Shown one piece after another: positions 9,037 to 37,460 of a stretch of DNA of 64,000 nt (the stretch's first letter is position 1; each line of letters starts with the position of its first letter). This DNA comes from Vulcanimicrobiota bacterium (GTDB lineage Bacteria; Vulcanimicrobiota; Xenobia; Xenobiales; QWHO01). The DNA lies in assembly GCA_963169765.1 (NCBI GenBank), contig CAUJEN010000073.1, forward strand, positions 10,932 to 74,931, read 5' to 3'. The translations under genes and the position numbers were made by a program. Under the pieces are notes generated by a model. It had not been told where the DNA came from, did no database searches, and worked only from the letters and a program-made list of their open reading frames with translations.

Positions 9037-9186
9037 TTGTGGTGGCGGAGCTTTACAACGCGCAGGAACGCAGATCCGGCGCGATCGACGAAGCGCGGCC
9101 ACTGCTCGGGCAAGAACGGTAAGGCGATGTTGGGCGTCGCGCAGCCGGAAGACCTTGTCAGGGGGGCTTCCGGCAGCGCTCCTGGG
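9037..9186. repeat. Interspersed intergenic repeat element, copy A
   Basis: Shares 'ctttacaacgcgcaggaacgcag.tccggcgcg' with copy C (33823-33860). Shares the 3' hairpin module 'atgttgggcgtcgcgcagccggaag..cttgtcagggg..cttccggcagcgctcctgg' with copies B, C and D. Confidence 0.6.
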
Positions 9187-9293
9187 TGCAGCGTTCGCAA
9201 ACTCCCCTGCCGAGACCCCTCCTCCGTGGATTCAGGAGAGAGAGCCGGGAGATCAGAGGATTTGCTCTCCCCGATCCCCACTCAACCTCCACT

Positions 9294-10547
9294 CTAGCGA
9301 GGTCCCCCGAAGCCCATCAGGCGCATCCGCTCCTGCGCCTCGGCCATCAGGGCGGCGCCGGCCCTGATGCGCTCCACCCCCTGCTCGAGGTGAGAGCGAT
9401 GGGACTCGACGAAGAAGCGCTCAAGAAGCTCCACGCCCTCCAAGAACAAGCGGCTGGACGCCTCCATGCTCTTGCGGGAAGCCTCGGCGCCCTGGCGCAG
9501 CTCTTCGGAAGGGAAGCTGGCCGGGGGCTTGAGGTTGTCCAGGGCCCGCCTGCCCTGGCGCACGTTGGCCGCGAACCACTCCACCGTGGGCCTGAGCTCG
9601 GCGGCCGCCAGACGGTCGTCCAGGAAAGCCTCCACGGCCTCCTCCAGGCGCACGATGTAGGCAAAACGAGCCTGACCGGGGAGCCCGGCCTCGACCTCGA
9701 AAGTGCTTGCCGGCCCCATGGCCAGCTCTGGCAGGCGGGCCTGACATTGGCGGCACACCTTGCTGCCGGGCGCATTTGACTCCGAGCAGCGGGGGCAGAC
9801 CAGCCTGGGGGCGGCCGCTTCCAGCACCTTCTTGCGCAGCCCGAGCAGGTGGCTGGCCGTCTCCAGCACCATCTCACAGCCCTTCTTGAGATGCTCGCGA
9901 TTCTTGTCGGAGAAGTAGCGACTCATTTCCTTGAGCCCGCGCTTCATCTTCTCCATGCCCCGGGTGATCTCGGGGATCAGGGCCAGAACCTGCTCATTTT
10001 CAGCCGGGCTCTTGACCCACTCGCGAGCGTCGCCCATGGCCTGCTTCCAGTGGCTGTAGAAGGCGTCCAGGCGAATACGCAGAGGCTCGTCGGGGATCTG
10101 GCCCCGGGCCACGCCCAGGGCCACGCTGGCCAATTCGTTGACCAGCGGCGACTCGGAGTAAGTCGGAAAAGACTCCTCTTCCTGGCGCAGGCGGTCAAAG
10201 GCCCCCAGCATGCTGTCGGCCGCCTCCTGAGCTTCCCGACAGCCCCGCACCAGGTGGTCGGCCTGGCGGTCGTCGAGCCAGCGGTCGATGCGCTTGAGAG
10301 CGGTCTTCAGCCGTTCGAGCTCCTGGCGAATGAGCGGGTCGAGCTCTTTGATCAGGCTTGTGGACGGGCGCAGCTCCTTGCTGGAGCGATACTGCGCGCG
10401 CAACTGGTCCACGAAGATAGCCATGAACTTGAGGCGGGCCGCCAGCTCACGGGCCAGGGTCTTGTCCTGGGAGTTCTCAGAGCAAGCGCGTGCTGCCCGG
10501 ATCAGCTCGTTGAGCGCGGCTGATCGGGATAGCTCGAACGCCGGCAC
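9294..10547 (-). CDS. Hypothetical helical protein with central zinc-ribbon (CPRC ... CRQC)
   Basis: 417-aa ORF rich in charged helical segments, with a CxxC-x12-CxxC ribbon. Immediately downstream of and co-directional with the Gly-zipper micro-protein gene. Confidence 0.5.
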   Translation of the reverse strand: MPAFELSRSAALNELIRAARACSENSQDKTLARELAARLKFMAIFVDQLRAQYRSSKELRPSTSLIKELDPLIRQELERLKTALKRIDRWLDDRQADHLVRGCREAQEAADSMLGAFDRLRQEEESFPTYSESPLVNELASVALGVARGQIPDEPLRIRLDAFYSHWKQAMGDAREWVKSPAENEQVLALIPEITRGMEKMKRGLKEMSRYFSDKNREHLKKGCEMVLETASHLLGLRKKVLEAAAPRLVCPRCSESNAPGSKVCRQCQARLPELAMGPASTFEVEAGLPGQARFAYIVRLEEAVEAFLDDRLAAAELRPTVEWFAANVRQGRRALDNLKPPASFPSEELRQGAEASRKSMEASSRLFLEGVELLERFFVESHRSHLEQGVERIRAGAALMAEAQERMRLMGFGGPR

Positions 10548-10550
10548 GGA

Positions 10551-10853
10551 CTAGAAGCCGAAGGAACCGGCCAACCAGCCCAGGCTGGAGCCGAGCATGT
10601 TCCCCACGAACATTCCCGTCATCCCCGCCCAGGGATTGTTCATTCCACCGGCTGCAAAATAGCCCAGCGCGCCGCCCAGGCCGCCGCCGATCATACTGCC
10701 CGCAAAGCCCCCGTACATCGACATGGGGCTGAACATCATGGGGCCCATGAACATGCTCGAGCAGCCCCACAGGCCGCCCATATAGCTCCCAAACATCGGG
10801 GCTGGCCCCCAGAATCCGGGTGTTGCGAACGGACTACAACCGATTCCCCACAT
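10551..10853 (-). CDS. Small Gly/Met-rich glycine-zipper (YMGG-motif) protein
   Basis: 100-aa ORF with GC-rich third codon positions and an AAGGGG Shine-Dalgarno about 12 nt upstream. Contains SYMGG and repeated GxxxG/GGxGG zipper motifs. Confidence 0.45.
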   Translation of the reverse strand: MWGIGCSPFATPGFWGPAPMFGSYMGGLWGCSSMFMGPMMFSPMSMYGGFAGSMIGGGLGGALGYFAAGGMNNPWAGMTGMFVGNMLGSSLGWLAGSFGF

Positions 10854-10959
10854 GTTAGCTCTCTACCCCTTCTGTTGACTGCTCCCCATCATAACCGGAT
10901 CGAACCTTTTTGAGAAGCACCCGGTTGTAAACCTCTCTCGAAAGGACTCTCCTCCGCCG

Positions 10960-11835
10960 GTGGCGCACCATTCCCCTCCCATGCGCAGTCTGCTCCTGAA
11001 ACTGGCCTACAGCAACCTCTGGATCGCCCTGCAGGCAGGCGGGCAGGCCCTGATGACCCAGGCGATGCTGGGCCTGCCCTTCGACCTGAGGGCCTGCTGG
11101 CTCTGTTTTCTCTGCATGTTCTTCGTCTACACCTTCGCCAAGACGGTGCGTTTCGATCCCACTGCCGACGCCCTCAACGACCCCGAGCGGACCAGCTTTC
11201 TGTTGCGCTGGCGCGTTCCCCTCATCGCTCTCGGGGTTCTGCTCTTCACAATCGGAACCTGGCAGGCCCATCGCTGGCAGGTGCTCTGGCTCTACCTCTT
11301 TCCAGTTCTGACGGCCGTGCTCTACGACATCAAGATCCTGCCGGCCAGGTTTCACTACCGGCGTCTCAAGGACCTCACCGGGGTCAAGAGCGTGGTGGTG
11401 GCCATCGCCTGGTCGGTGCTCGGCACGCTGGTGCCGGTCAGCCTGGCGGGCCAGGGCTCGGGCCCGGGAGTGTACTTCCTGCTGACCTGGTACTTTGCCA
11501 TGTTCTTCGTCAACACGGTCTATTTCGATCTGGGCGACATGCGCGGCGATCGCGCCGAGGGAACCCTGACCCTCCCCCTCTGGCTGGGCTTCCGATTCAC
11601 GCGCGTCATGCTGCTGGCCATCACGCTGGCGTGCGCCGGAGCCCTTTGGGCCGCAGCCCACAGCGGCCTTGTGAGCCCTGCAGGCCACTGGATCAATGTG
11701 CTGTGCCTGTATCAGCTGGCCTTCGTGTGGCTGGCCCGAGATGAAGAAACGAATCTGGGCTTTCTCTGCGACGTGGTCGCCGACGGAGCGTTCCTGGTGG
11801 GAGGTCTGCTGGCTCTGGCCAGCAGATGGGCCTGA
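10960..11835 (+). CDS. UbiA-like prenyltransferase family membrane protein (tentative)
   Basis: Polytopic membrane protein with ND-containing loop and DLGDMRGD (DxxDxxxD-like) Asp-rich motif. Confidence 0.45.
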   Translation: MAHHSPPMRSLLLKLAYSNLWIALQAGGQALMTQAMLGLPFDLRACWLCFLCMFFVYTFAKTVRFDPTADALNDPERTSFLLRWRVPLIALGVLLFTIGTWQAHRWQVLWLYLFPVLTAVLYDIKILPARFHYRRLKDLTGVKSVVVAIAWSVLGTLVPVSLAGQGSGPGVYFLLTWYFAMFFVNTVYFDLGDMRGDRAEGTLTLPLWLGFRFTRVMLLAITLACAGALWAAAHSGLVSPAGHWINVLCLYQLAFVWLARDEETNLGFLCDVVADGAFLVGGLLALASRWA

Positions 11836-11842
11836 GAAGCGG

Positions 11843-12208
11843 CTATTCCGCCACCATCTTCTCGGCTTCCAGGCGGATCTCGGCCAGCTCTTCCGGCTCG
11901 ATCTGCAACTGCCTGGCGATGGCGTTGAGGTAGCGCAACTCGGCAATCTGGATGGTGCCATCGGCCACCGACAGGCTGCAGAGCACCTTCATCAACTTGC
12001 GCCGGCTGTCGTGGCGAGGGAACAAGCCATCCAGGTCGGGGGCCACGCCCTCTTGCATGAACCGGGCCACCTCTTGAATCTCGTCCTCACGGTAGCCCAG
12101 CCGCAGCAGAATATTGCCAAGGATGGCCCTCTCCTTGTCGCTCACCTCCCCGTCGGCCCAGATCACTCCGACCAGGCTCTTGAGCACTTCCCGTTCACGA
12201 TCGTCCAC
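11843..12208 (-). CDS. TerB-like (tellurite resistance TerB/DjlA-N domain) protein
   Basis: Duplicated LVGVIWADGEVSDKERAILGNIL / LCSLSVADGTIQIAELRYLNAI pattern typical of the TerB fold. Confidence 0.65.
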   Translation of the reverse strand: MDDREREVLKSLVGVIWADGEVSDKERAILGNILLRLGYREDEIQEVARFMQEGVAPDLDGLFPRHDSRRKLMKVLCSLSVADGTIQIAELRYLNAIARQLQIEPEELAEIRLEAEKMVAE

Positions 12209-13535
12209 CGGCTGGCTGCCCTCCGCTTTTGTTATCCGCCCTTTCGGGGGCAGCGGCGCGAGCCCTGCTGAGCCAGTTGGCCGCCCCCACGCCGGCGGCC
12301 CGGCCGGTGGCCAGGCAGGCAGTCAGAAGATAGCCCCCGGTGGGTGCCTCCCAGTCGAGCATCTCGCCGGCTGCGAACACGCCCGGCAGGCGACGCAGCA
12401 TCAGGTCCGGTCCCAGCTCGTCGAAGACCAGGCCGCCGGCGGAGCTGATGGCCTCCTCCAGAGGGCGAGTGGCCCGCAGGCGAAGAGGGAGCGCTTTGAT
12501 GCAAGCTCCCAGGCGACTCAGGTCCTCCTCCAGGCTAGCGCTGACCAGCTCACGCAGCAAACCGGCCTTGACTCCTTCGATATGGGCTCGGCGGCGCAAG
12601 TGCTCGCTCAGCGAGCGGCTGCCCCGGGGCAGGGCGAGCTCGCGCTGCAGGCGCTCCAGCGTTCGGTCGGGGGCCAGGTCGAGCTGGACGGTCGCCTCCC
12701 CCCGGGCTTCGATCTCGTCGCGCAAGGCCGGCGAGTAAGGGTAAATCAGGCTCCCTTCCAGACCATACTCGGTGACCATGAGCTCACCCCGCCGGACCAC
12801 CTCCGCGTGGCTCAAGGTCACCGACTTGACCGGGTGGCCGGCATATCGTTGGCGGAATTTCTCGCTCCATTCCACCTCGAAACCGCAGTTGGAGGGCCGC
12901 AGCGTGGCCACTGCCAGACCGCGCTGGCGAAGCCACGGAACCCAGGCCCCGTCCGATCCGAGCCGACTCCAGCTCGCACCGCCCAGGGCCAGGACCACGG
13001 CCGGCGCCGCCACCGTGATCTCGCCCTCGGGAGTGCGCACGAGCAGCTCTCCTCCCGCAGTCCAGCCCACCCAGCGATGGCGCGAGTGCAGCTTCACCCC
13101 CTGCTCGCGCAGTCGGCGCAGCCAGGCGCGCAACAATGGCGCCGCCTTCATCTCGCGAGGAAACACCCGACCCGAGCTGCCCACGAAGGTGGAGATGCCC
13201 AGTTGGGCAGCCCAGTCTCGCAACTGGGAGGGGCCGAATGCCCGCAGATGGGGCTCGAGCCGGGCCCGACCAGGGCCGTATCGCTCCAAAAAGTTCTCGA
13301 AGGGCTCGGAATGAGTCAAGTTCAGCCCGCCCTTGCCCGCCAGCAAGAACTTGCGAGCTGGCGTGGGCATGGAGTCGTACAATTCCACCGAGAAGCCCCG
13401 CTCCAGCAGGGCCTCGGAGGCCATCAGCCCGGCCGGTCCGGCCCCGATCACCGCAGCATCCAAGTCCTGATCTCCGCTCCTTGCGCACCCGGCGTCCGAT
13501 ACATTACAACAAATCGATGAGAACCCTGCTGGCAT
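12195..13535 (-). CDS. NAD(P)/FAD-dependent oxidoreductase (HI0933/BaiN-like flavoprotein family)
   Basis: N-terminal DAAVIGAGPAGLMA Rossmann motif and GRVFP / C-terminal GG motifs of HI0933-like flavoproteins. Exact start uncertain. Confidence 0.75.
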   Translation of the reverse strand: MPAGFSSICCNVSDAGCARSGDQDLDAAVIGAGPAGLMASEALLERGFSVELYDSMPTPARKFLLAGKGGLNLTHSEPFENFLERYGPGRARLEPHLRAFGPSQLRDWAAQLGISTFVGSSGRVFPREMKAAPLLRAWLRRLREQGVKLHSRHRWVGWTAGGELLVRTPEGEITVAAPAVVLALGGASWSRLGSDGAWVPWLRQRGLAVATLRPSNCGFEVEWSEKFRQRYAGHPVKSVTLSHAEVVRRGELMVTEYGLEGSLIYPYSPALRDEIEARGEATVQLDLAPDRTLERLQRELALPRGSRSLSEHLRRRAHIEGVKAGLLRELVSASLEEDLSRLGACIKALPLRLRATRPLEEAISSAGGLVFDELGPDLMLRRLPGVFAAGEMLDWEAPTGGYLLTACLATGRAAGVGAANWLSRARAAAPERADNKSGGQPAGGRS

Positions 13536-13611
13536 TCTGGCTCCTCACCCCGCTGGCGACCGAGGTCCCTGGGCCTGGGCCGAGCCGTGGTGCGGCCCCG
13601 CTGAGCCCCTG

Positions 13612-14193
13612 ATGGCCCGGCCGACCTGCCCGAGTTGCCACCGGGCCCTGCCGGTCTGCCTTTGCCATCTAGTGAAGTCCTTCACGGCTGCGGCAGAAAT
13701 CCTGATCTTGCGCCATCCCCGCGAGCAGCGCTCGCGTCTGGGGGTGAACACGGCCCAGCTGGTGGCCCTGGCGGTAAAGAACTGTCGGCTACTCGACGGG
13801 CTCGACTTCGAGCGCGATCTGAAGCTGCGAAGCTGGCTGACCGGAGCCTGCCTGGTCTATCCCGGGCGCCTGGCAGTCGACCTGGCCAGCCAGACCGAAG
13901 CCCCTCGCCGCCTGGTCTTCCTGGACGGGAGCTGGCGCGGGGCGGCCCACATCCTGCGCCGCAACGACCTGCTGGCCCGCCTGCCCCGCCTCACCTTCCA
14001 GGCCCCCGCCTCGCGCTACCTGTTTCGCCGGCAGCCCCGTCCCGAGTGCACCTCCACCGCCGAGGCCGTCTACTGGTGCCTGGAAAAGATGCCAGGGAGA
14101 AGCTCGCAAGAGCACGCCAATCTGCTCGAGCTGCTCGACTACCTGGTGGCCTGCCAGGCTCGCGCCTCGGCGGCGACGAATCCTGAAGGGTGA
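13612..14193 (+). CDS. DTW domain protein (tRNA-uridine aminocarboxypropyltransferase family)
   Basis: N-terminal CPSCHRALPVCLC Cys cluster and the diagnostic LVFLDGSWRGAAHI (D-G-S-W) motif. Confidence 0.75.
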   Translation: MARPTCPSCHRALPVCLCHLVKSFTAAAEILILRHPREQRSRLGVNTAQLVALAVKNCRLLDGLDFERDLKLRSWLTGACLVYPGRLAVDLASQTEAPRRLVFLDGSWRGAAHILRRNDLLARLPRLTFQAPASRYLFRRQPRPECTSTAEAVYWCLEKMPGRSSQEHANLLELLDYLVACQARASAATNPEG

Positions 14194-14948
14194 AATCCAC
14201 CAGCGGAAAGATCGCCCGCGCCCTGGCCCACCAGACCCAGAAGGTGGTGCCCAGAACACGCGAGCGCCGCTTTCACTCCCTCTTGTTCATCCTGGCCACC
14301 GTGCCGCTCTTCGTGTTGACCTGGTTCGTGCCGCGTCATGCCCTGGTGGCCGCCCACGCGGCTGCCGCCCGGGGCGACCTCGAGCGGCTCGAGCGGCTCT
14401 ACAGCAAGAATCCCGAGTCACTCTCCCACGAGGACGTGGGAGGAGCCAGGGCGCTGCATTATGCCGCCCTGAACCACCAGCTCGAGGCGGCCCGCTTTCT
14501 CGTCGACCACGGGGTGGAGGTGGACGCCACCAACCTGCAGGGCCAGTCAGCCCTGTTCTATGCCGTCAGCGCCAACAACCCCGATATGGTCGATTTCCTG
14601 GTCGCCTCCGGGGCCGATCCGGATCGCATCGACCGGCACGGATTGACCCCGCTCTACCTGGCGGTGGCCCGGGGATTTCCCGGTATGGTCGAGAGCCTGG
14701 CCGGCTATCGGGTCAGGACCGAGGTCGAGCACGCCTCGGGTCAGTGCGTTTTGCACGAGGCCGTGCTGCGCGGCAACTCCTCCATCGTGCGATTGTTGCT
14801 GCGCATGGGGGCCGACAAGAACCGACCCGATCGGCGCGGAGAGACCCCGCTGCAAATCGCTCAGCGCTTGAAGCTGCTGGAGGTCGAGGGGGTGTTGCGC
14901 GAGAGCCCCACCGTCGGCGCAGGAACCGTACGCTCGAAGCGGAACTAA
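14190..14948 (+). CDS. Ankyrin-repeat protein
   Basis: Several 33-residue ANK repeats (GARALHYAALNHQLEAARFLVDHGVEVDATN ...). Start overlaps the upstream stop. Confidence 0.7.
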   Translation: MKSTSGKIARALAHQTQKVVPRTRERRFHSLLFILATVPLFVLTWFVPRHALVAAHAAAARGDLERLERLYSKNPESLSHEDVGGARALHYAALNHQLEAARFLVDHGVEVDATNLQGQSALFYAVSANNPDMVDFLVASGADPDRIDRHGLTPLYLAVARGFPGMVESLAGYRVRTEVEHASGQCVLHEAVLRGNSSIVRLLLRMGADKNRPDRRGETPLQIAQRLKLLEVEGVLRESPTVGAGTVRSKRN

Positions 14949-14998
14949 CGACCGCCCCTGCGGCACCTGCATCTAGCTGACGGAGTTCGAGAATACCT

Positions 14999-16766: not shown

Positions 16767-16813
16767 GGCTCAGCCGGAGGACAGGGGCCGACCGCTCCCG
16801 AAATCAACACAGC

Positions 16814-17890: not shown

Positions 17891-17970
17891 GAGGTCGGCA
17901 AGCTCGGCTCGCGACTCAGACTTGCTCTCGCCGCCCACCTGATGGCGATGGAGAGTTACCGGCTGCGAAC

Positions 17971-26539: not shown

Positions 26540-26572
26540 GAAGAAGCCCGGCCAGCAAGCCGGGCTTCTTTT
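26540..26572. terminator. Rho-independent (bidirectional-capable) terminator
   Basis: aagaagcccggc-cagcaa-gccgggcttctt followed by TTC on the plus strand. Sits between convergent genes (26338-26532 + and 26592-27878 -). Confidence 0.6.
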
Positions 26573-26591
26573 CATGAGGCCGAGGACTTGC

Positions 26592-27878: not shown

Positions 27879-27890
27879 CGGCTCACCTTC

Positions 27891-28560
27891 TCAGAAGCGA
27901 TTTTGGAGATACGCCCGGGTGGTCGTCTCCAACCTGGTAAATTTGTTTGTGCCCGTTGCCTCTTCCGCGTGCAACTCGATGTGTAAAACCTCCGGAGGGT
28001 CAATCGGGACCCTCCACACCCTGAACTTGACGATGTTGCGAGCGATCACGCGCAGGTTCGGGCCCGAAAAGGTAAAACTGGCATAGGGCGGGATGGTGTT
28101 GGGCGGTACAACGCTCGGCAGTCCGGGAGCGACGGGAGGCGCGAGCTCCTGCCGCTCCAACTCACCGGTGGCCGTGCGCCGGTAACAAACCCACTTCTGC
28201 CAGTTGATCATCCCCAGCGGGCTATGCTGCAACGGTCCATCATTGGGCATCGGCAGCTCGGCGGAGAGAAAGATGAGGTGCTCGACGGGGACACCGCTGG
28301 AAAACCAGCAATTCGGGCGCGAGTCCTGCAACTCGGCCAGAAGTTTCTTCGTGGCGATCGTGCACTGGTTCTGGACCGTCTGGTAAGCCCGGCCCTGCTG
28401 GAAATAGCGCATGCCGCCCACCATCAGGAGGTAACAGGCGCCCAGAAGAAAGAGCAAAAGCGAGCCAGCCACCAGCACTTCGATGATGGAGAACCCCGCT
28501 CGGCGGGGCTGACGGGGGGAGGCCGGACCTCGAGTTACCACGCGGTTCCGGCTCCGCTCC
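27891..28560 (-). CDS. Type IV pilin-like protein (prepilin N-terminal methylation domain; PilW-like)
   Basis: RRAGFSIIEVLVAGSLLLFLLGA matches the prepilin cleavage/methylation consensus (G|F-S-I-I-E). Start proposed at GTG 28560; upstream sequence belongs to repeat copy B. Confidence 0.55.
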
Positions 28561-28715
28561 TGGAAGTCCAGCCGCAAACTCCCTTGGGGTGTCGGAGGGA
28601 ACCTCCGACACCCCAAGATATTGTAGGCGGCCGGACTTCTAGCACAAGATGCTGGGCGTGGCGCAGCCGGAAAGCTGTGTCAAGGGGGTTTCCGGCTGCG
28701 CTCCTAGAAGTCGGC
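28545..28715. repeat. Interspersed intergenic repeat element, copy B (partial unit plus complete unit in tandem)
   Basis: Contains hairpin 'ggggtgtcggagggaacctccgacacccc', core 'aagatattgtaggcggccggacttctagcacaagatgctgggcgtggcgcagccggaaa ... tttccggctgcgctcctagaagtcggcc'. The 3' terminal 'ttccggctccgctcctggaagtc' is also present at 28551-28580. Confidence 0.6.
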
Positions 28716-29075
28716 CACATAGCTCTGCAGCCTCACACTTCTCGCAATGCTGCCCTCCGTCCAGGTCACCTCGGAGACGACGTTGTTGACGCCGGGCCAG
28801 CCCTGCGCAGCGACCGTGACCTGGCACGTAAAGGTCGTACTGACCGCCACTCCATTGACCTCGCCCAGGACGGTCGTGGCTTGTGGACCCCAATTGGCCG
28901 CATTGGCATAACCCCTGGCCATCGTCGTTTCGAGATGCTCGCGAGCGAGATTGGTGGCCACCAGGACATTCTTGGCCTGGGTGGTGGCCCGGTGGCTGGT
29001 CGGGAAAATGCCGAACAGGAGTAACAGGGAAACGCAGAAGAGCCCGAGACCGAAGATGATCTCGAGCAGCATGCT
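28704..29075 (-). CDS. Type IV pilin-like protein (PilV-like pseudopilin)
   Basis: Start chosen at MSMLLEIIFGLGLFCVSLLLLF (prepilin-type N-terminal hydrophobic helix with Glu). Co-directional with the other pilin-like genes. Confidence 0.45.
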   Translation of the reverse strand, partial: SMLLEIIFGLGLFCVSLLLLFGIFPTSHRATTQAKNVLVATNLAREHLETTMARGYANAANWGPQATTVLGEVNGVAVSTTFTCQVTVAAQGWPGVNNVVSEVTWTEGSIARSVRLQSYVADF

Positions 29076-29178
29076 CATCCCCCGCTGGCTCTTGCGACTC
29101 CTCACGAAAGAATCGTACCACAAGGGCAAAACAAAGGAAAGCTTGCCCCTAAAAAGAATTGCCCGGAAGAATCCAACT

Positions 29179-32100
29179 GTGCGAACCAGAGCGCGCAACT
29201 GGCGCGCGCCCTACCAATCAATCTTGCGCCCACTCATTCTGGCTCTCTTTTTCTGCTCGGGCCTGTCGGGCCTGGTCTACGAGGTGCTCTGGACGCGCCG
29301 CCTGACCCTGACCTTCGGCCACTCGGTGCTGGCCGCCAGCACCGTGGTGACGGCCTATATGCTGGGGCTGGCCGCCGGGAGCCTGTGGGCCGGCCGGCGG
29401 GTGGACCGAGCCACGGCCTCGCGGGGAACCTTCCTGACCACCTACGCCTGGCTCGAGATCGGCATCGCGCTCTGGGCAGGGGGCTCTCCATGGCTTCTGA
29501 TCGGAATCGACCAGCTCTGGTTTTCTCTGGCAGCCTCCGGCTGGACCTCGCTCTGGCTCTGGCTGGCCGCCTTCCTGGCGGCGCTGGCCGCCCTCACTCC
29601 CCCGACCTTCCTGATGGGAGCGACCCTGCCGGTGTTGAGTCGGGCGCTGGTGGGCGAGAGCCGTCAGCTGGGCCGCTCGCTCTCCTGGCTGTATGGCGTC
29701 AACACTCTGGGAGCCTGCGCCGGCGCCGGGCTGGCGGGCTGGTTCTTGCTACCCGGTCTGGGCCTGACAACCTCCTTGCTGATCACGGCCGGGCTCAACC
29801 TGGGCCTGGGAGCTCTGGCCTGGTTGCTGGGCTGGGCCTGGCCCGGCCAGCCGGCCAGCCCTCCAACCCTCCGCGAGGAGATCGCCGCTTCCAGCCCGAC
29901 GGCCCTGGCCGCCCCGGCCATGGCCCTGGCCGGGCTGGCATCCATGGCCCTGCAGTTGGGCTGGATGCGGGCCATGGCGCAGCTGCTGGGCTCCTCGGTC
30001 TACGCCTTCTCGACCACGCTGGCCGTATTTCTGGCTGGCCTGGGGCTGGGCGGGGCACTGTTCTCCCTGCTGCCTTCCTCGCGGCGCCCTCGCTCGTGGC
30101 ATCTGGGCCTGACGCTGGCCCTGACCGGTCTGGCCGCGGCCGGAAGCTACCTGGTGATCGACTGGCTGCCCGGCCTGGCCCTGCAGCTCCATCGCATGGT
30201 GCGCCCCGACATTCTGGGCACGGTGGCGCCCACGGCCGGTCTGGCCGGGCTGGTGATCCTGCCGCCCACTTTGCTGATGGGCCTGGCCCTGCCGCTGGCC
30301 AGCGCGCTCGAGGCTCACCGCCGCGACGCGCTGGGGCGTGGGCTGTCGGCCGTCTACAGCGCCAATACGGCCGGCTGTATCGCCGGAGCCGCCCTGGCCG
30401 GCCTGGTGGCCATTCCCTTCCTGGGCGTGCAGCTCACCCTCAAGCTGGCCGCCCTGGCCTACCTGGCAGCCGCCCTGCTGGTCTGGCCGCGCGCCTGGCC
30501 GGCCCTGCTCCCGGGCCTGGCCGTGCTGATCCTACCCGCCTGGAATCTAGCCCTGATCGCTAACGGGCCCGGCGTCTACTCCGACTTTCTGGCTCGCGCC
30601 AGATCCACAAATACCCTGCGGCCACCGGCCTTCTATCGAGACGGCCTCTCCAGCACGGTCACGGTCAACGTCTACGGGCCCAACGAGCAGGCCCTGCGCG
30701 TCAACGGCAAGGTGGACGCCTCCCTGGGTCTGCCCGACATGCAGACCATGCTGCTGCTTGGCTACATCCCCGCAGCTTATCACGTCGGGCTGCGCAAGGC
30801 GGTCGTGATCGGGCTGGGAAGCGGATTCAGCCTCCGCGCCCTGGCCAATCTGTCCGCGCTCGAGCGGCTCGACTGCGTCGAGCTCGAGCCGGCCGTGGTG
30901 GAAGCGGGCCGGTACTGGGCGGGCTACAACGGGCGGGTGCTGGAAGATCCTCGCCTGCGAATGCACCTGACCGACGGGCGCACCTTTATCCAGGCCTCCC
31001 GCGAGAAGTATGACCTGATCGCCAGCGAGCCTTCCAACCCCTGGATCGCAGGGGTCGCCAACCTCTACACCCGTGAGTTCTACCTCTCCTGTGTGCAGCG
31101 CCTCGAGCCGGGCGGAATCATGGCTCAGTGGGTGCAGCTCTACGGGCTGTCCCAGCAAGATCTGCACTCTGTCCTGCGCACCTTCTTCGAGGTCTTTCCC
31201 CACGGGGCTGTGTGGCAAACCTCCAGCGGCGACCTCTTGCTGCTCGGCTCGCTCACCCCCCTCCCCTTCGATCTTGCTCGCCTGGAGAAACTGAGCGCCG
31301 CCTCCCCCGCCATCCGCCGGGACCTGGCCGCCATCCAGCTCTACCGGCCGGCCATGCTGCTCGGCCACTACCTGGGCGAGCGCGATCCCTTCTATGCCGC
31401 CTTTCGGGCCGCTCCGCGCAACACCGACGACCGGCCCCGGCTCGAGTTCACGGCCCCCTTCGGGCTGTTCCGCGACAACACTCCGGGCAACCTGCTCTCG
31501 CTGGATCTGGCACGCACCGGACAAAGCCCCCTGCCACCGGGGGTCGATCCCTCTCCCGAGCGACGGATCGAAGCCGCCCACGGACAGGTCAACCTCAATC
31601 GCGTGGGGGACATCCAGCTCCTGGCCCCCCTTAAAGACGTGCCCGGCTGCAGCCTGGTGGCCGCCCGCTCAGCCGAGCGCGAGCAAGACGAGCTGACCCC
31701 CCGACTCTATGAGCAGGCGCTCCAGGAGCAACCCGACGACCCGGTCACCTTGTGGCTCTCGGCCCTCTACCTTCTGACGCGAGGAAACCTTGCCGACGGG
31801 GCAAAACTGCTGGCCCGACTGGAGAAAAGCCCTCCGGACGGCCTGGAGGAAAGCGTGCTGGTGGTGCGAGCCCAGGTGCTGCACCGACTGGGCCGTTTGC
31901 AGGAGGCTGAAGCCTGCTTGCTGCGGGCGATCGGGCTGAAGACCGGCTACAGCACGGCCTGGACCTGGTTGGGACGCATCCAGGCCGCCTCCAACAAGCC
32001 ACAAGCCGCCCTGGAGAGCTTCGAGCAAGCTCTGAGTCTGAACGCTTACGACCCGGACGCTCGCGCCGGCAAGACCTTGGCGCTGATGGCTCTGAAGCGC

Positions 32101-32313
32101 TTTCCGGAGGCGATTACCGCCGCTCGAGCCATGCTCGAGTTGCAAAGCGACAACGCCGAAGGCTGGATGTACCTCTCCACCGCCTTGCAGGCGTCGGGGG
32201 ACGCGAGAGGGAGCGAGCAGGCCCGGGCCCGGGCCCGCCAGCTCGACCCCAAGATCGGTCGTCCCGACCAGCTCTTCGAGCCCCCGGACAAGAACCAGCT
32301 GCCCCAGCGCTGA
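29179..32313 (+). CDS. Fused polytopic-membrane (MFS-like)/spermidine-synthase-like protein with C-terminal TPR repeats, paralog 1
   Basis: About 12 TM N-terminal region aligned with paralog 2 (LSGLVYEVLWTRRLTLTFGHSV...). Central spermidine-synthase fold (GSGFSLRALANL ... DLIASEPSNPW ... LYTREFY). C-terminal TPR. Start ambiguous (GTG 29179 or TTG 29224) because the upstream frame overlaps the divergent pilin gene. Confidence 0.7.
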   Translation: MRTRARNWRAPYQSILRPLILALFFCSGLSGLVYEVLWTRRLTLTFGHSVLAASTVVTAYMLGLAAGSLWAGRRVDRATASRGTFLTTYAWLEIGIALWAGGSPWLLIGIDQLWFSLAASGWTSLWLWLAAFLAALAALTPPTFLMGATLPVLSRALVGESRQLGRSLSWLYGVNTLGACAGAGLAGWFLLPGLGLTTSLLITAGLNLGLGALAWLLGWAWPGQPASPPTLREEIAASSPTALAAPAMALAGLASMALQLGWMRAMAQLLGSSVYAFSTTLAVFLAGLGLGGALFSLLPSSRRPRSWHLGLTLALTGLAAAGSYLVIDWLPGLALQLHRMVRPDILGTVAPTAGLAGLVILPPTLLMGLALPLASALEAHRRDALGRGLSAVYSANTAGCIAGAALAGLVAIPFLGVQLTLKLAALAYLAAALLVWPRAWPALLPGLAVLILPAWNLALIANGPGVYSDFLARARSTNTLRPPAFYRDGLSSTVTVNVYGPNEQALRVNGKVDASLGLPDMQTMLLLGYIPAAYHVGLRKAVVIGLGSGFSLRALANLSALERLDCVELEPAVVEAGRYWAGYNGRVLEDPRLRMHLTDGRTFIQASREKYDLIASEPSNPWIAGVANLYTREFYLSCVQRLEPGGIMAQWVQLYGLSQQDLHSVLRTFFEVFPHGAVWQTSSGDLLLLGSLTPLPFDLARLEKLSAASPAIRRDLAAIQLYRPAMLLGHYLGERDPFYAAFRAAPRNTDDRPRLEFTAPFGLFRDNTPGNLLSLDLARTGQSPLPPGVDPSPERRIEAAHGQVNLNRVGDIQLLAPLKDVPGCSLVAARSAEREQDELTPRLYEQALQEQPDDPVTLWLSALYLLTRGNLADGAKLLARLEKSPPDGLEESVLVVRAQVLHRLGRLQEAEACLLRAIGLKTGYSTAWTWLGRIQAASNKPQAALESFEQALSLNAYDPDARAGKTLALMALKRFPEAITAARAMLELQSDNAEGWMYLSTALQASGDARGSEQARARARQLDPKIGRPDQLFEPPDKNQLPQR

Positions 32314-32338
32314 AAGGGTTCCATCCGCTTTCCCTGGA

Positions 32339-33799
32339 ATGGCCGGGCCCATGCCCATGATGAAACTGCGCGAAGAGCTTGGCCTGACATTCGACGACGT
32401 GCTGATCGTGCCCCGGCACTCCCCCATCTCCAGTCGCTACGGGGTAGACACCGGCACCCAGCTGACCCCCCGCATCCGCTGCCAGATCCCCATCCTGTCG
32501 GCCAACATGGACACCGTCACCGAGGCCCAGATGGCCGTGGCCATCGCCCGCGATGGTGGGCTGGGCATCATCCACCGCTTCCTGAGCCCCGAGCGGCAGG
32601 CGGCCGAGGTCACCCGGGTCAAGCGCGCCGAGAGCTTTGTGGTGGAAGATCCTGTCACCCTGCCAGCGGACGCCCCGCTGGCCCGCGCCCGCGAGGCCCT
32701 GCGCGAAGTGGGCGGCGTGATGGTGGTGGACGCGGACGGAAAGCTTTGCGGCATCCTGACCCGTCGCGACCTGGTGCTCTACGAGTCAGAAAACGGCCTG
32801 GTGAAGGAGCTGATGACCCCCCGCGAGCGGCTGATCACCGGCCCGCGCGGCATCGGGCAAGACGAGGCCCGCGAGCTGTTGCACAGGCATCGCATCGAGA
32901 AGCTGCCCCTGATCGATGAGGACGGCCGTCCGGCCGGACTCATCACCTCGCAGGACATCATCAAGCTGCAGCGCCACCCCCACGCCACCAAGGACGAGCG
33001 GGGCCGGTTGCGGGTGGGTGCAGCCGTAGGCGTGCGCGCCTCGGACGTGGAGCGGGCCGAGCGGCTGCTGGCCGCCGGGGCCGACCTGCTGGTGGTGGAT
33101 GTGGCCCACGGCCACTCCGACCTTTGCATCGACATGGTCAAGCGGCTCAAGCAGAACTTCCCCGATTGCGAGGTCATGGCTGGCAACGTGGCCACCGCCC
33201 AGGGAGTGCGCGACCTGGCCGAGGCGGGCGCTTCCTCCATCAAGGTGGGAGTTGGCTCGGGCTCGATCTGCATCACCCGCGTGGTGACCGGTGCCGGGGT
33301 GCCCCAGCTGACGGCCGTGCTCGAATGTGGCCTGGCGGCCCGCGAGGTGGGGGTGACCCTGATCTCCGACGGCGGCATCCGCAATTCGGGCGACATCACC
33401 AAGGCCCTGGCCGCGGGCGGCCACGCGGTGATGGTGGGCAGCCTGCTGGCCGGCACCACCCAGAGCCCGGGCGCCAGCGTGGTGCGCGACGGGCGACGCT
33501 TCAAGGTGGTGCGCGGCATGGCCTCGCTGACGGCCAACATCGACCGGCTCGAAGTCGAGTCGCGCCGCGAAGTGGACCCGGAAGACTGGGAGCGCGTCGT
33601 CCCCGAGGGCGTTGAGGCGGTGGTGCCCTACCGGGGCGACGTGCACGACATCCTGCACCAGCTGATCGGCGGCCTGCGCTCGGGCATGACCTACGTGGGC
33701 GCCCACAGCCTCGAGGAGCTGTACGACAAGGCCGAGCTCGTGCGCATGACGGGCGCCGGCATGGCCGAGAGCGGTGCCCACGACGTCACCAAGCTCTAA
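32339..33799 (+). CDS. guaB: IMP dehydrogenase
   Basis: Full-length IMPDH. Catalytic loop [20 protein letters not shown]. Tandem CBS domains. C-terminal [12 protein letters not shown]. Confidence 0.9.
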
Positions 33800-33800
33800 A

Positions 33801-33826
33801 GTGCAAGGCCTTTGGTCTTGCACTTT
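33801..33826 (+). terminator. Hairpin after guaB stop (weak U-tract)
   Basis: agtgcaag-gcctttggtc-cttgcact followed by TTACA, 2 nt after the TAA stop. Confidence 0.35.
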
Positions 33827-34055
33827 ACAACGCGCAGGAACGCAGTTCCGGCGCGTTCGTTAGATTGTGCTAATGTGCAAAACCAAAGTGCGAGCACATT
33901 AGAAGGCGGGCCGCACCCCCCATGGGGTGTCGAAAGGGCTGCCCCCGCCTCCACAAGATATTGTAGGCGGCCGGACTTCTAGCACAATATGTTGGGCGTC
34001 GCGCAGCCGGAAAACCTTGTCAAGGGAGTTTCCGGCTGCGCTCCTGGCTCTCAAC
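33815..34055. repeat. Interspersed intergenic repeat element, copy C (longest)
   Basis: Contains the 5' module shared with copy A, an internal palindrome ctaatgtgc...gcacattag, and the core 'cacaagatattgtaggcggccggacttctagcacaatatgttgggcgtcgcgcagccggaaaaccttgtcaagggagtttccggctgcgctcctgg'. Confidence 0.6.
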
Positions 34056-34203
34056 TGGCGCAGGCGGCCAGCGGCTCGTCAGCGGACGGGAGGGGTAGTT
34101 GCGTGGCGCCCGGGACTGGACCCCTTGTGGACGACGGATCCGGCACCCGGTGCCACGCAGACCTCAATCTACTCCAGAGTCGGGCCCGGATCTGTGATCC
34201 AGA

Positions 34204-35397
34204 TTACTGCCTGCGGGGAACCCGCACGCCCCCGACCAGCACGTAGTCGGCCAGTTGGGCGACCTGGTTACCCCCACCACCGTTCTTGAGGTGGTCGGCC
34301 AGGTAGCCCAGGTCCGTGTTGTGGGCGCTTTGCGTCCACAGGGTGAGGCTGTAGTCCAACAGGCTGACGGCCAGCTGCTTGCCATCGGGCGAAAAGCTGA
34401 TCTGGCGGATCCCCTCGGCACTGGCCATGCCCGGGGTGTGGGGCAGCTCCTGGCGGCGGACCTCCCCGGTGGCCAGGTTCCAGTCGTGCACCGCGTTTCT
34501 GATGGCCTCGCCGACCAGAAGGTGGTTGCCGTCCGGAGTGAAGGCCAGGCTGCGCGCCCCGCGGATGGCCCGGGCGTCGACCTCGCGACCGGTCTCAACG
34601 TCGAAGACCTTGATCTCTTTCTCGAAGACAGCCGCCACCTTCGTGCCGTCGGCCGAGAGGGCCATCCCACCACCGCCCTCTTTGCGCGTATCCTCGAGCT
34701 TATGCAGGAGCCTCTGCTCGCGGGCGTCCCAGATGGCCACTCCACCCCGGTAGCGGGTCACGATCTTGGAGCCGTCAGGCGTGAAGGCGATGTCGGTGAC
34801 CCAGTCGGGGTGCTGCAGGCAGCCGGTCTGCTCGCGAGCCTCCGGATCCCAGAGCAAGAGGCGTCCGTCCATCGCGCCGGTGGCCAGCGTGCGACTGTCA
34901 GGCGAGAAGGCCACGCTGCGCACGTCGTCGTTGTCGAACAAAATGCCAAGAGCATTCGGTTTTGCGGTGGGACAGTGGGTCTGGTGGGTGATCTCAACGC
35001 CCCGAGAGGAGAAAACCGAGAACTTGCCGTCCTCCCAGCCCACAGCCACAAGCTCACCGTCGCCCGAGGCTGCCACCGGGCCGATGCGAACGTTCTTGTG
35101 CGCCACCTGGAAGCTCTGGGGCTCGCCTCCTTGCAGGTCCCAGAGGCGGAGCTTGCTGGGAGTGCCCACCAGGCTGGGCGACTCGGTGCTGATCAACTTG
35201 CCCCCCGGCGTCCAGCAGAAGCCCTCGATAGGATGGGTATGCTTGAGCGCAGGAGTGTCCCTGGGCGGATGCAGCGTGACCGTCCTCAGTCGCAGATCGA
35301 CCCGATCGGCAGGGCCTGCCGGCTCTTTTGTCTCGCCCTCGGGGCGCGAAACGGATGAGACCGGCAGGGCAAACAGGGCCAGGGGTTGGATCCTCAT
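34204..35397 (-). CDS. Secreted WD40-repeat beta-propeller protein
   Basis: Signal peptide, then canonical WD repeats (LRLWDLQ, LLLWDPE, VAIWDAR, IKVFDVE, LTLWTQ). Confidence 0.7.
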   Translation of the reverse strand: MRIQPLALFALPVSSVSRPEGETKEPAGPADRVDLRLRTVTLHPPRDTPALKHTHPIEGFCWTPGGKLISTESPSLVGTPSKLRLWDLQGGEPQSFQVAHKNVRIGPVAASGDGELVAVGWEDGKFSVFSSRGVEITHQTHCPTAKPNALGILFDNDDVRSVAFSPDSRTLATGAMDGRLLLWDPEAREQTGCLQHPDWVTDIAFTPDGSKIVTRYRGGVAIWDAREQRLLHKLEDTRKEGGGGMALSADGTKVAAVFEKEIKVFDVETGREVDARAIRGARSLAFTPDGNHLLVGEAIRNAVHDWNLATGEVRRQELPHTPGMASAEGIRQISFSPDGKQLAVSLLDYSLTLWTQSAHNTDLGYLADHLKNGGGGNQVAQLADYVLVGGVRVPRRQ

Positions 35398-35605
35398 GGC
35401 CCTAGCCTACCGACCGGGTCTGAAAAAAGCCTTACCGGAGAGCCCGGGAGGCCTGACGGACCAGAGAGTGACTATCCTGGCGCGAGTCAGCCGAGAGCTC
35501 CCAGAGAAAGCCTTGCAATTTTTTCAGCCAGCTGCTAGACTTGGGGAGTTCCCGGCCACCTGCTTCCAGAGGCGAAGCGCATTCGGTCGAGGACGGAGGG
35601 TCCTG

Positions 35606-36145
35606 ATGAAAGGAGACCCCAGGTTGCAGGAACTGCTCGAGCTGATCGAGACGATCGAACGAACTTCCAGACAGAGCTGTCGTCGCTGGAAACGAGTGGG
35701 TGAGCGACTCGACGAGTGGATCGCGATTTCATTGAAGATGCAAGAGGCGCTGGCCTCGATGCAAGAGGCGCAAGTTGCGACCATCAGGTCGCTGGCCGCC
35801 ACCCAGGAATCGCTGGCCGCCACCCAGGAATCGCTGGCCGCTACCCAGGAATCGCTGGCCGCCACCCAGGAATCGCTGGCCGCTACCCAGGAATCGCTGG
35901 CGGGGACACAAGGGGCGCAAGTCTCCATGCAGGCGTCTCTCAACACGCTCGAGGAGGCACAGTCCTCGACCAGCCAGGCCGTGCTCCGGCTGCGGGCCGA
36001 CCTCGACCAGGCGCAGGCCAGCGACGAGGCCCAGGAGAGAAATCTAGGCAAGGTCGTCCGGGTCCTGAACACCTTCGTGGATGGCTACGAATTGCGCCTG
36101 TCCAACGTCGAGCAGCGCCTCGAGCGGTTGGAGAAGAGCGCCTGA
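35606..36145 (+). CDS. Coiled-coil protein with 5x tandem heptad repeat (SLAATQE)
   Basis: GGAGGG RBS 6 nt before ATG. Heptad-periodic sequence throughout. Perfect 21-bp DNA tandem repeats encode SLAATQE x5. Confidence 0.5.
   Translation: MKGDPRLQELLELIETIERTSRQSCRRWKRVGERLDEWIAISLKMQEALASMQEAQVATIRSLAATQESLAATQESLAATQESLAATQESLAATQESLAGTQGAQVSMQASLNTLEEAQSSTSQAVLRLRADLDQAQASDEAQERNLGKVVRVLNTFVDGYELRLSNVEQRLERLEKSA
35789..35900 (+). repeat. 21-bp tandem repeat x5.3 (tcgctggccgc[ct]acccaggaa) inside coiled-coil gene
   Basis: Five consecutive 21-bp units differing only at one C/T position, plus a partial sixth unit. Confidence 0.85.
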
Positions 36146-36164
36146 AGGTCCGTCCGCTAACGTC

Positions 36165-36250
36165 TTTGCTTCCTGCGCTCCAATCTGCTGGGCGTCGCGC
36201 GGCCGGAAAACGTTGTCAACGGGGGGTTCCGGCTGCTCTCCTGAGAACCG
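36165..36250. repeat. Interspersed intergenic repeat element, copy D (3' hairpin module only)
   Basis: 'ctgctgggcgtcgcgcggccggaaaacgttgtcaacggggggttccggctgctctcctg' matches the 3' module of copies A-C, with stem gccggaa/ttccggc retained. Confidence 0.55.
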
Positions 36251-36290
36251 GACCAGGGCCGGGGCCGGAAGGCACGAACCTCAAGGGGTG

Positions 36291-37310
36291 GATCCGCTGC
36301 GCCCCACCTCCCCCCCCACACCGGTCCTGCGCTCCAACCAGCCCGCCCGTGTGACCGAGGGAGGACCGGCCGATGGCTTCCTCCCCGCCCAGGTGCGCCC
36401 GGGTCGCCCGGCTCGCGGGAGCGAGGCTCCCATCGAGCTGATCCACCCTGCTACGGCCGAGGAATTCCGACCCGAGCTGCAGGCTGCCCTCAAGCTGCTT
36501 CCACGCCGCCTGCTGGCCGGCATCGCCGAGCAGGGCTACCGGCTGCATGTGGTGGACAGCCAGGCAGCTCACTGCCTGACCCTGGAGGTGGAGGAGGTCT
36601 GCGACCCGCCTTTGGAAGAGCTCTACGCAGAAGCCTCCAGCCTGGGTGAGCTGGCTCGCCAGCGAGGACTCGTGCCGGGTCCGCAGTGGTTGCAGCGCGT
36701 GCTGCCGGCCAACCCCGAGCTGAACGTGCTGCGCGACCACCCGGCCGAGACCCCGCTGACCCCCGGTCAGGTTCTGCAGGTCCCCGCCTGCTACGGATGG
36801 CAGGGCCGCTGGATCAGCCCGGCCGCCTGGAGCTTTCTGACCGCCCCGCGGCTGAACAACCTGGCCGGAATGGTGGTCAACGGCGAGCAGGCCGGCTTGC
36901 GGGGCCGGCAACTGGCCATCGTGCTGTGGGACAAAGTTTTCCGCCGAGGAGACGGCCTGACCGACTGGTACGTCCTGCACGAGCTGGGCCACACCACCGA
37001 CTTCAGTTTCGCCTTCCGCCAGCCCGAGCCCTGGCGCGCCTGGCGGGGGCGCCTGGAGGCTGCCTTCGCTCAGGCCAACTTCCTCACGCGCTACGCGGGC
37101 GAGAGCCCTGTGGAATACTTCGCCGAGGGATTTGCCGCCTGGGCCACCCCGGCCGGCCATCGCCGCGCTCCCCGGCCGGGAGTCGAGCCCGAGCCGCTGG
37201 CCCGACAGCGCTACGAGGTCGACCGCAGCGTGCTGCAGGAGCGCGATCCGGGGCTCTACTCGCTGATCCAGGAGGCCGTGCGACTTACGCTCACCTCGAA
37301 GGATTCCTGA
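36291..37310 (+). CDS. Hypothetical HExxH-motif protein (putative zinc metallopeptidase-like)
   Basis: Contains WYVLHELGHTTDF (HExxH) and a downstream EYFAEGFA region. Start uncertain (GTG candidates at 36291/36348/36393) because the upstream ORF reads through repeat copy D. Confidence 0.45.
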   Translation, partial: DPLRPTSPPTPVLRSNQPARVTEGGPADGFLPAQVRPGRPARGSEAPIELIHPATAEEFRPELQAALKLLPRRLLAGIAEQGYRLHVVDSQAAHCLTLEVEEVCDPPLEELYAEASSLGELARQRGLVPGPQWLQRVLPANPELNVLRDHPAETPLTPGQVLQVPACYGWQGRWISPAAWSFLTAPRLNNLAGMVVNGEQAGLRGRQLAIVLWDKVFRRGDGLTDWYVLHELGHTTDFSFAFRQPEPWRAWRGRLEAAFAQANFLTRYAGESPVEYFAEGFAAWATPAGHRRAPRPGVEPEPLARQRYEVDRSVLQERDPGLYSLIQEAVRLTLTSKDS

Positions 37311-37319
37311 TCGTCGATG

Positions 37320-37460
37320 CCGTCCAGGAAGTCTGGCCGCAAACCCCCTTGTGGTATCGGAGGGGCTACGCCCTCGGGGGCCCCTACCCCCGCCTCCGCC
37401 ACCACAAGCCGTGTCCAGGGGGGGCCGGCTATGCTCCTCGCTCAGCGCAGGAATGCGCCG
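37320..37460. repeat. Interspersed intergenic repeat element, degenerate copy E (5' module)
   Basis: 'caggaagtctggccgcaaacccccttgtggtatcggagggg ... cccctacccccgcctccgccaccacaag' parallels the 5' portions of copies B (28570-28640) and C (33911-33960). Lies directly upstream of the second fused MFS/spermidine-synthase gene. Confidence 0.4.

Follow-up and report, generated by a model that had tools for sequence, protein, structure and literature searches.

The stretch of contig CAUJEN010000073.1 analysed here (64,000 nucleotides from a Vulcanimicrobiota bacterium of the Xenobia, hereafter the window) contains six copies of a short interspersed repeat. We estimate with a probability of about 0.8 that these repeats are copies, some intact and others strongly degraded, of a non-autonomous miniature inverted-repeat transposable element (MITE) that is specific to one lineage of Xenobia (Eremiobacterota). 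The unit is shorter than 300 bp, has no coding capacity of its own, carries terminal inverted repeats, occurs in dispersed copies with unrelated flanks and is present or absent at orthologous sites. A first-pass annotation of the window had described the family as either MITE-like, or similar to repetitive extragenic palindromic (REP) sequences, or a small structured RNA. The dispersal, the sharp TA-flanked ends, the terminal inverted repeats and the presence/absence pattern argue for the MITE, whereas a small structured RNA, or selection on structure, received no support. Target-site behaviour tips the balance slightly towards a MITE of the IS630 type. The family is thus a previously undescribed one of a well-known kind, and no new kind of mechanism is proposed.

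The unit, as bounded by homology to copies in other genomes, measures approximately 148 nt and is composed of about 144 nt and a flanking TA on each side. Its consensus is CTAGAAGTCCGGCCGC-AAACCCCCA-TGTGGTGTCGGAGG-GAA-CCTCCGCCACCACA-AGATATTGTAG-GCGGCCGGACTTCTAG-CACAATATGTTGGGCGTC-GCGCAGCCGGAAA-ACTGTGTCAAGGGGG-TTTCCGGCTGCGC-TCCTAG. The element begins with TA-GAAGTCCGGCCGCAAACCCCC and ends with GGGGGTTTCCGGCTGCGCTCC-TA. In the consensus, GAAGTCCGGCCGCAAACCCCC and the reverse complement of the 3' end, GGAGCGCAGCCGGAAACCCCC, agree at 15 of 21 positions, and the inner part of this imperfect terminal inverted repeat, GCCG-N-AAACCCCC, is near-identical at the two ends (13 of 14 positions). Each of the two terminal repeats is moreover paired with a segment inside the unit, which therefore folds into an 83-nt and a 41-nt hairpin (hairpin 1 and hairpin 2) joined by the linker CACAATATGTTGGGCGTC. 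Either strand can adopt this fold, whether as DNA or as RNA, with an energy of -85.8 kcal/mol (z -8.2) for one strand and -84.8 kcal/mol (z -9.2) for the opposite one. The 13-bp stem GCGCAGCCGGAAA/TTTCCGGCTGCGC and the conserved loop recorded in the first-pass annotation are both present, and the sequences of linker and loop are highly conserved across copies. Of the six frames in which the unit can be read, two are open, and the peptide already suspected of being spuriously conserved is frame +0 of the element. GC3 gene calls give these frames no coding support, and they show no gene signal.

Homologous sequence was found at all five loci (A to E) where the repeat had previously been placed. 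A repeat search of the window recovered a four-copy family of 59 nt (9127-9185, 28649-28707, 33989-34047 and 36185-36243) and a 104-nt pair formed by copies B and C at 89% identity. The core 20-mer pattern TGGGCGTNGCGCNGCCGGAA has four matches in the window against 0.25 expected, and the 3' pattern TTCCGGCNGCGCTCCT has seven against 0.57 expected. The latter pattern brought to light copy F (49150-49255, minus strand), the sixth, in keeping with the earlier count of at least five. A profile search of the window returned exactly copies A to F and no other match of note.

The window is assigned to 'bacterium CPR1' (QWHO01), since one protein encoded nearby is 99% identical, and another 100% identical, to CPR1 entries. 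In the collections scanned, related copies (84-100% identical) were seen only in metagenome-assembled genomes of Xenobia. A 20-mer scan of the genome collection yielded 104 loci but was unspecific, since approximately 95 of them are chance 20-mer matches; real copies occur only in Candidatus Xenobia bacterium AMX-MBFR-33 (GCA_045863235, BTUM01; six loci) and in CAZWUN01. A linker-anchored scan of metagenomes added 27 loci, nearly all from the JAANMV-JAANMY assemblies, which brings the total to about 30 unique copies in other Xenobia contigs. Loci from these related genomes and metagenomes are cited below by L-numbers, L143 belonging to AMX-MBFR-33 and L144 to JAANMT01. Homology between the window and the other genomes is confined to the unit of 145-153 nt, and the flanks never align. 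Similarity among the copies is star-like: mean identity within AMX-MBFR-33 is 94%, identity between copies B and C is 84%, and each is 87-92% identical to the AMX-MBFR-33 copies. Eleven metagenome contigs start or end inside the element, which is the signature of a high-copy repeat. Some copies are clustered, as at L131 (9386-9843), where three copies lie head to tail with CTCC-TG-GAAG junctions and two of them carry an insertion of approximately 25 nt in the loop of hairpin 1, and at L111 (10344-10639), where a head-to-head pair has one CTAG in common. Another copy, at L113 (6061-6278), is split by a 68-nt AT-rich insert (agtgtttcaaccaaactaaatcc...) whose composition is foreign to these genomes of approximately 66% G+C.

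The ends of the element are marked by a dinucleotide. A search for flanking direct repeats, as the first-pass annotation had proposed, found TA on both ends of at least 18 intact copies. On the 5' side the outer flank is C-TA in 18 cases, T-TA in two and G-TA in one; on the 3' side it is TA-G in 21 cases and TA-C in one (L061), the remainder having decayed to TG. Outer flanks of the form C-TA...TA-G are thus found at about 90% of intact ends. Duplication of a 2-bp TA fits L034 (T-TA...TA-G), L061 (C-TA...TA-C) and copy B without any extra mutation, whereas a 4-bp duplication does not. In the old copies of the window the flanking TA has mostly changed to TG (CTAG to CTGG), except where the TAG is a stop codon, as in copy B.

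Copy B (28560-28707, plus strand) provides the clearest case of presence and absence. Between about 18.3 and 35.5 kb the window is collinear, at approximately 85% identity, with AMX-MBFR-33 (L143) and JAANMT01 (L144), and the collinear alignment skips exactly 28506-28705. The site is empty in three relatives (L133/L143, L134 and L137/L144), in which two pseudopilin genes overlap (..GTGGCCGACTTCTAAGGGCC..; ...AGCTATGTGGCCGACTTCTAAGGGCCGTCGAGCGGGCTTTTCGATCATCGAAG); the window reads ...GCCGACTTC-TA-GGAGCGCAGCC...[element] at this point. The empty site is C-TA-A and the filled junction TTC-TA-GGAGCGC, and the stop codon of the upstream pseudopilin gene, TAA in the relatives, has become TAG in the window, this being the terminal TAG of the element. 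In a second instance, the CTAG stop codon that ends the orthologue of window gene 9294-10547 (minus strand) is the exact position of a copy at L107 (299-419), and the corresponding CTAG of the window (9294-9297) is unoccupied; this copy is cut short at the far end, so that its two junctions cannot both be read. Further pairs of empty and filled sites were sought. Synteny between L087 and L106 stops short of the site, and no homologues of the open reading frame (ORF) 34766-36145 were found for this purpose. The nearest homologue of the paralogue at 37509-40184 lies in a different context with no copies of the element, and an exact-protein match for guaB gave only a 1.5-kb contig.

Stop codons recur at the ends of the element. 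In 16 of 29 unique copies the TAG stop of a neighbouring ORF is the terminal TAG of the element, as it is for copy B, in which the 3' terminal TAG (28704-28706, read on the minus strand) ends gene 28704-29198 (minus strand). The tetranucleotide CTAG is itself rare, with 16 occurrences in the window against about 200 expected from base composition, an approximately 12-fold depletion; at least four of the 16 are stop codons and three lie inside elements. We propose that a transposase supplied in trans would cut at the terminal repeats, and that integration would take place at TA, preferably a TA inside CTAG, with duplication of the TA. The first base of the element is G and the last is C, so each insertion rebuilds a TAG on the 5' side and a CTA on the 3' side. 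A stop codon that has been struck is therefore regenerated, and the flanks stay good targets, which leads to tandem and nested copies with a single TA in common. Such re-use of TA is seen in the L131 tandem, in the head-to-head pair at L111 and at junctions between a second repeat family (X, described below) and the main element, where one TA is common to both in two different arrangements. Because CTAG is rare and many of the remaining CTAG sites are C followed by a TAG stop codon, insertions are funnelled to gene ends, and the family consequently looks strictly intergenic. The association of copies with stop codons and CTAG is an observed pattern; its cause, as given here, we infer. Once inserted, copies would decay by change of TA to TG and by deletions spanning the hairpins, leaving relics that consist of hairpin 2 only, such as A and D. 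IS630 is described as preferring the TA in 5'-CTAG-3' (Tenzen and Ohtsubo 1991, as cited in PMC2170065), and the mobilisation of RUP, a 107-bp element accepted as a bacterial MITE of the IS630 type, at TA sites has been ascribed to IS630-Spn1 (PMC2229807).

The window copies occupy convergent (A and C), tandem (D, E and F) and intra-operon (B) gaps. Copy B is a full 148-nt unit. The duplicated 3' terminus previously described for it is real and corresponds to an internally deleted copy, B' (28515-28562, plus strand; GGCCGGACCTCGAG...TTCCGGCTCCGCTCC-TG), placed in tandem directly before B. Copy B had also been placed upstream of a spermidine-synthase-like gene, which is incorrect: it separates two minus-strand pseudopilin genes. 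Copy C (33899-34047, plus strand), also a full unit, has a degenerate inner stem in hairpin 1 and a 3' TA decayed to TG, and lies between the convergent genes guaB (32339-33799, plus strand) and a WD40 gene (34204-35397, minus strand). Copy A (9028-9185, plus strand) is a decayed mosaic between the convergent genes 8359-8904 (plus strand) and 9294-10547 (minus strand). It is made up of an inverted piece of the 3' half of hairpin 1 (9028-9051), a fragment of family X (9051-9087) and the hairpin-2 module with the 3' terminal repeat (9127-9185), of which the flanking TA has decayed to TG. Copy D (36165-36244, plus strand), which starts 20 nt past the stop of the ORF ending at 36145, retains nothing but the hairpin-2 module (36181-36244); before it stands what is left of another 3' end (..CTGCGCTCCAAT). 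Copy E (37325-37440, plus strand) has kept both termini and lost both TA flanks to decay; the loop of hairpin 1 carries an insertion of approximately 25 nt, as in the subfamily copies L131b/c, and an internal deletion extends from the 3' arm of hairpin 1 to the 5' arm of hairpin 2. Copy F (minus strand), between genes 48512-49120 and 49306-50553 (both plus strand), has kept both terminal repeats around a deleted and diverged interior.

Several points weigh against this interpretation as a TA-inserting MITE. There is a single clean pair of empty and filled sites, whose far junction is masked by the tandem copy B', and no fresh insertion with a TA duplication was seen directly on both sides. The flanks are nearly always C-TA-G, which is also compatible with an IS5-like 4-bp duplication of CTAG. 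The terminal repeats match imperfectly, and MITEs of the Tc1 type normally form one long palindrome, so that a layout with two hairpins is unusual among them. Moreover, neither the window ORFs nor the Pfam-annotated syntenic loci nor 424 kb of Xenobia DNA yielded an autonomous element whose terminal repeats match. As the first-pass annotation had remarked, no transposase is nearby: none was detected among roughly 40 window ORFs scanned for domains, nor was any transposase domain present in the Pfam-annotated syntenic loci. Searches for distant inverted pairs of the terminal repeat, allowing mismatches and a spacing of 0.4-4 kb, gave only chance matches in GspF-like and response-regulator genes of L123, and the 424 kb of Xenobia DNA contained no multi-copy long repeats. 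As no autonomous element was found, the transposase family is read from the target site alone.

Two other modes of transposition were considered. A MITE derived from an IS5-group element, inserting at CTAG or YTAA with a 4-bp duplication, would resemble MITEPsy1, an element of 100 nt with 18-nt terminal repeats that targets CTAG or YTAA and duplicates 4 nt (PMC3189936). Such an origin agrees with the CTAG at both ends of most copies and with the vacant target of copy B, whose sequence CTAA fits YTAA. We nevertheless regard it as unlikely, because an extra point mutation would be needed at L034 (TTAG versus CTAG) and at L061 (CTAG versus CTAC), and because at copy B it predicts CTAA followed by GAGCGC where CTAG followed by GAGCGC is observed. 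The ends that it implies, AAGTCC.. and GAGCGC.., mismatch at their first bases, whereas insertion at TA leaves G at both, and they are unlike the IS5-type ends GGAAGGT or GAGNNTGT. Alternatively, hairpin DNA could have been moved in single-stranded form by a Y1 (HUH) transposase, either as a RAYT-mobilised REP or REPIN or as an IS200/IS605 PATE, with insertion 3' of a YTAG target and no duplication. Two very stable subterminal hairpins (the fold energy given above), the extragenic position of the copies at gene 3' ends and the occurrence of modules in mixed combinations, like BIMEs, are what this alternative would lead one to expect, and the right junction of copy B also fits insertion 3' of TTAG. 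It is rendered distinctly improbable by the true terminal inverted repeats, which are absent from IS200/IS605 ends, by TA on both flanks in a symmetric C-TA-G context, by a unit of 148 nt instead of 20-40 nt that has no GTAG head, and by the mixed orientation of the copies. The ORFs scanned contained no Y1 transposase, which for a single-copy gene is weak evidence.

The remaining explanations invoke function or descent without transposition. According to the first-pass annotation, the family would be discredited if the repeats proved to be fragments of a degraded, duplicated protein-coding gene. The two open frames, with their apparent conserved peptides, are the kind of trace such a gene would leave, but identical sharp ends recur in dozens of unrelated contexts, copies of this palindromic sequence stand in both orientations, no remnants of a longer ORF flank them and the GC3 gene calls are unsupportive; this reading is effectively refuted. 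Another reading takes the element for a structured RNA with a function, encoded by a small RNA gene or acting in cis in a 3' untranslated region or leader, and kept by selection on its secondary structure. Such a role is in line with the strong fold, the highly conserved linker and loop, and several paired substitutions. Copy A does have the compensatory change reported for it, with G-C at the loop-proximal pair where B and C have A-T, but this is one event in a decayed copy and does not establish selection on structure. Similarly, the inner stem of hairpin 1 shows GGGG/CCCC against GTGG/CCAC in B and L131b, and pair 5 of hairpin 2 is G-C in L061 and in F, where the consensus has A-T. Each of these compensatory changes stands alone, in a palindrome that the copies inherited from their master copy. 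Among 18 distinct full copies, only two of 42 stem pairs are changed on both sides, a level reached by 48 of 500 shuffles, and the covariation is not significant; the copies being very similar, the test has low power and its outcome is lack of support, not disproof. In the same set 94.7% of cells pair and approximately 35 break pairing, so that most variation in the stems disrupts pairs, including an A.C mismatch at pair 5 of hairpin 2 in at least six copies. Both strands fold equally well, and relative to the gene whose stop they abut seven copies are parallel and ten antiparallel. Orientation is therefore mixed, and copies lie in convergent, tandem and intra-operon gaps alike, decay by deletion and, in the case of B, are absent from the orthologous site of relatives. 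An Rfam 15 search of the whole window at gathering thresholds gave no matches, and a relaxed search with copy B returned only sub-threshold ones, chiefly generic hairpins of miRNA precursors (best 30 bits against a gathering threshold of 90). No sigma-70 consensus was detected around B and C, no terminator within the element (a single match, 28464-28476, lies outside) and no T-run after either hairpin on either strand. Taken together, these results make a conserved RNA function highly improbable. A minus-strand TTGTGC-N16-TACAAT noted by eye as a candidate promoter failed the scan criteria and was dropped. An extended pairing in the loop of hairpin 2 (CCTTG/CAAGG, or CGTTG/CAACG in D) was likewise rejected, since the three bases before TGTCAAGG vary freely and the pairs are not kept.

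The locus of copy B also shows what insertion can do to host genes. The pseudopilin-like gene at 27891-28541 (minus strand), with the N-terminal methylation motif ..RRAGFSIIEVL, had its start and leader replaced by the insertion of B and B', and the minus strand of B' now appears to encode the N-terminal leader of this protein. The upstream gene of the pseudopilin operon (28704-29198, minus strand) marks the insertion point. The first-pass annotation had assigned to B an outer stem, but the 3' partner in this stem, ctagaagtcggcc (28704-28717), does not derive from the element: with it ends the native coding sequence (V-A-D-F-stop) of this upstream gene, whose C-terminus is kept in homologues down to 54% identity and in element-free genomes. 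The native end in relatives, GGCCGACTTCTAA (L133 3360-3375), matches the terminal repeat GGCCGGACTTCTAG at 12 of 13 positions; chance seems unlikely, and insertion may favour sequences resembling the terminal repeat of the element itself. The element lies between two pseudopilin genes of the same orientation at three independent loci, all on the minus strand (window 27891-28707, L048 6957-7529 and L061 2661-3380). Its fully open minus-strand frame (..LEVRPP..GGGGSLRHHMGVCGRTS) is in frame with the mature prepilin N-terminus (G followed by F/L-x-x-x-E). Judged from sequence, the downstream prepilin seems to owe its cleavable leader to the element, which contains, or has immediately upstream of it, candidate starts in frame; prepilin peptidase would remove this element-encoded leader. 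In old copies the hairpin-2 module (TGGGCGTCGCGCAGCCGGAAAAC...), which is very conserved, survives on its own, and it could serve as a stabiliser of mRNA 3' ends, a processing site or a protein-binding site. That some copies have been co-opted by the host in either way, as a prepilin leader or through the hairpin-2 module as a host-used hairpin, is nonetheless a speculative and rather unlikely proposition.

The 5' module common to copies A and C, which had been regarded as part of the same element, is indeed shared but belongs to a separate repeat family, X. Members of this family measure approximately 102 nt, are flanked by TA and have a short terminal inverted repeat (TA-AAGTGCAAGG...GAGCACAT-TA). 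The window contains, besides the fragment within copy A, a full copy (33799-33900, plus strand), which starts inside the TAA stop of guaB and has its 3' TA in common with copy C, and a partial copy (40339-40400, minus strand; 82% identity over 62 nt). Others were found at L121 (98-203), L123 (14628-14732), L117 (8777-8885), L113 (7266-7371), L124 (6860-6965) and L128 (8382-8484); the closest to those of the window are 94-98% identical, and two others about 80%. Family X occurs in the same genomes as the main element and also stands alone in other contigs. Relative to AMX-MBFR-33 (L143) and JAANMT01 (L144), the window genome has no counterpart of two small genes, of 57 and 233 aa, that separate guaB from the WD40 gene there, and X and copy C fill this junction (33805-34101), so that repeats sit at a rearrangement junction. 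It also lacks, relative to L143 and L144, a block of approximately 2.8 kb holding a GH18/CBM2 chitinase (35505/35506).

Other repeats in the window are of a different nature. Coding tandem repeats rich in TGC/TGT codons are located at 7969-8211 and 8466-8630, with units of 81 nt (three copies) and 33 nt (about five copies). Their peptides (..CCPDGPCCATGESCC.. and ..CCDKGGKSGGD..) suggest small cysteine-rich repeat proteins and have no Pfam match; a perfect hairpin follows at 8930-8966. A 21-nt tandem repeat (GCTGGCCGCCACCCAGGAATC, about 4.5 copies) at 35791-35884 lies within ORF 34766-36145, for which Pfam gave no match and the database search no homologue at E<=1e-10.

The main family and family X have practical consequences for genome analysis, as they break Xenobia assemblies, create false conserved peptides and lead to over-extended ORFs. 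Furthermore, stop codons are provided or restored by the elements, and at least one pseudopilin gene owes its present 5' end to them. Gene prediction in this uncultured lineage of Xenobia would benefit from a model of the element. The family offers a clear example of a rare palindromic target, CTAG, by which a transposon is steered to stop codons, at which its insertion is almost neutral, and it documents the activity of mobile elements in Eremiobacterota. To our knowledge, with no literature search aimed at one, no repeat family has been described for this group.

Several known systems bear comparison with the Xenobia element. REP, BIME and REPIN sequences associated with RAYT are, like it, palindromes located outside genes, at their 3' ends, and combine into modular mosaics. 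However, REPs are 20-40 nt long, have a GTAG head and do not combine terminal repeats with a duplication, and the Xenobia element has none of their defining features. The PATE of IS200/IS605 have neither terminal inverted repeats nor a duplication, and their asymmetric ends and left-side target differ from its symmetric C-TA-G. MITEPsy1 of Pseudomonas syringae, derived from the IS5 group, is similar in size (about 100 nt) and in its CTAG or YTAA target (PMC3189936), but has a 4-nt duplication and GGAAGGT-type repeats, whereas the three informative copies of the Xenobia element favour 2 nt and its ends differ.

Other parallels are provided by elements that insert at TA. Correia/NEMIS of Neisseria are MITEs of 100-155 bp with a TA duplication and hundreds of copies, often beside genes; the open frames of some size classes are fused to host ORFs, and hairpin transcripts can affect the expression of neighbours (PMC2229807; PMC2649163). 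They belong to a different phylum and have no sequence in common with the Xenobia element, and they carry 26-bp terminal repeats, a site for integration host factor (IHF) and outward promoters, whereas no promoter consensus was found in the latter. IS630 of Shigella sonnei (IS630/Tc1-mariner) is reported to insert preferentially at the TA of 5'-CTAG-3' and to duplicate this TA (cited in PMC2170065), and the flanks of the Xenobia copies show this pattern. It is an autonomous element of approximately 1.15 kb encoding a DDE transposase, in contrast to the non-coding unit of 148 nt, and the likeness observed between the two is in the target site. RUP is likewise small, non-coding and intergenic, has terminal inverted repeats, targets TA and occurs in about 100 or more copies, and its mobilisation in trans by an IS630-family transposase was deduced from its terminal repeats and target (PMC2229807). 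The two families show no sequence similarity, and the parent insertion sequence is known for RUP, whereas none was found for the Xenobia element. RUP has stops in all six frames, whereas the Xenobia element has two open frames and is further distinguished by its two hairpins and by a strong CTAG context.

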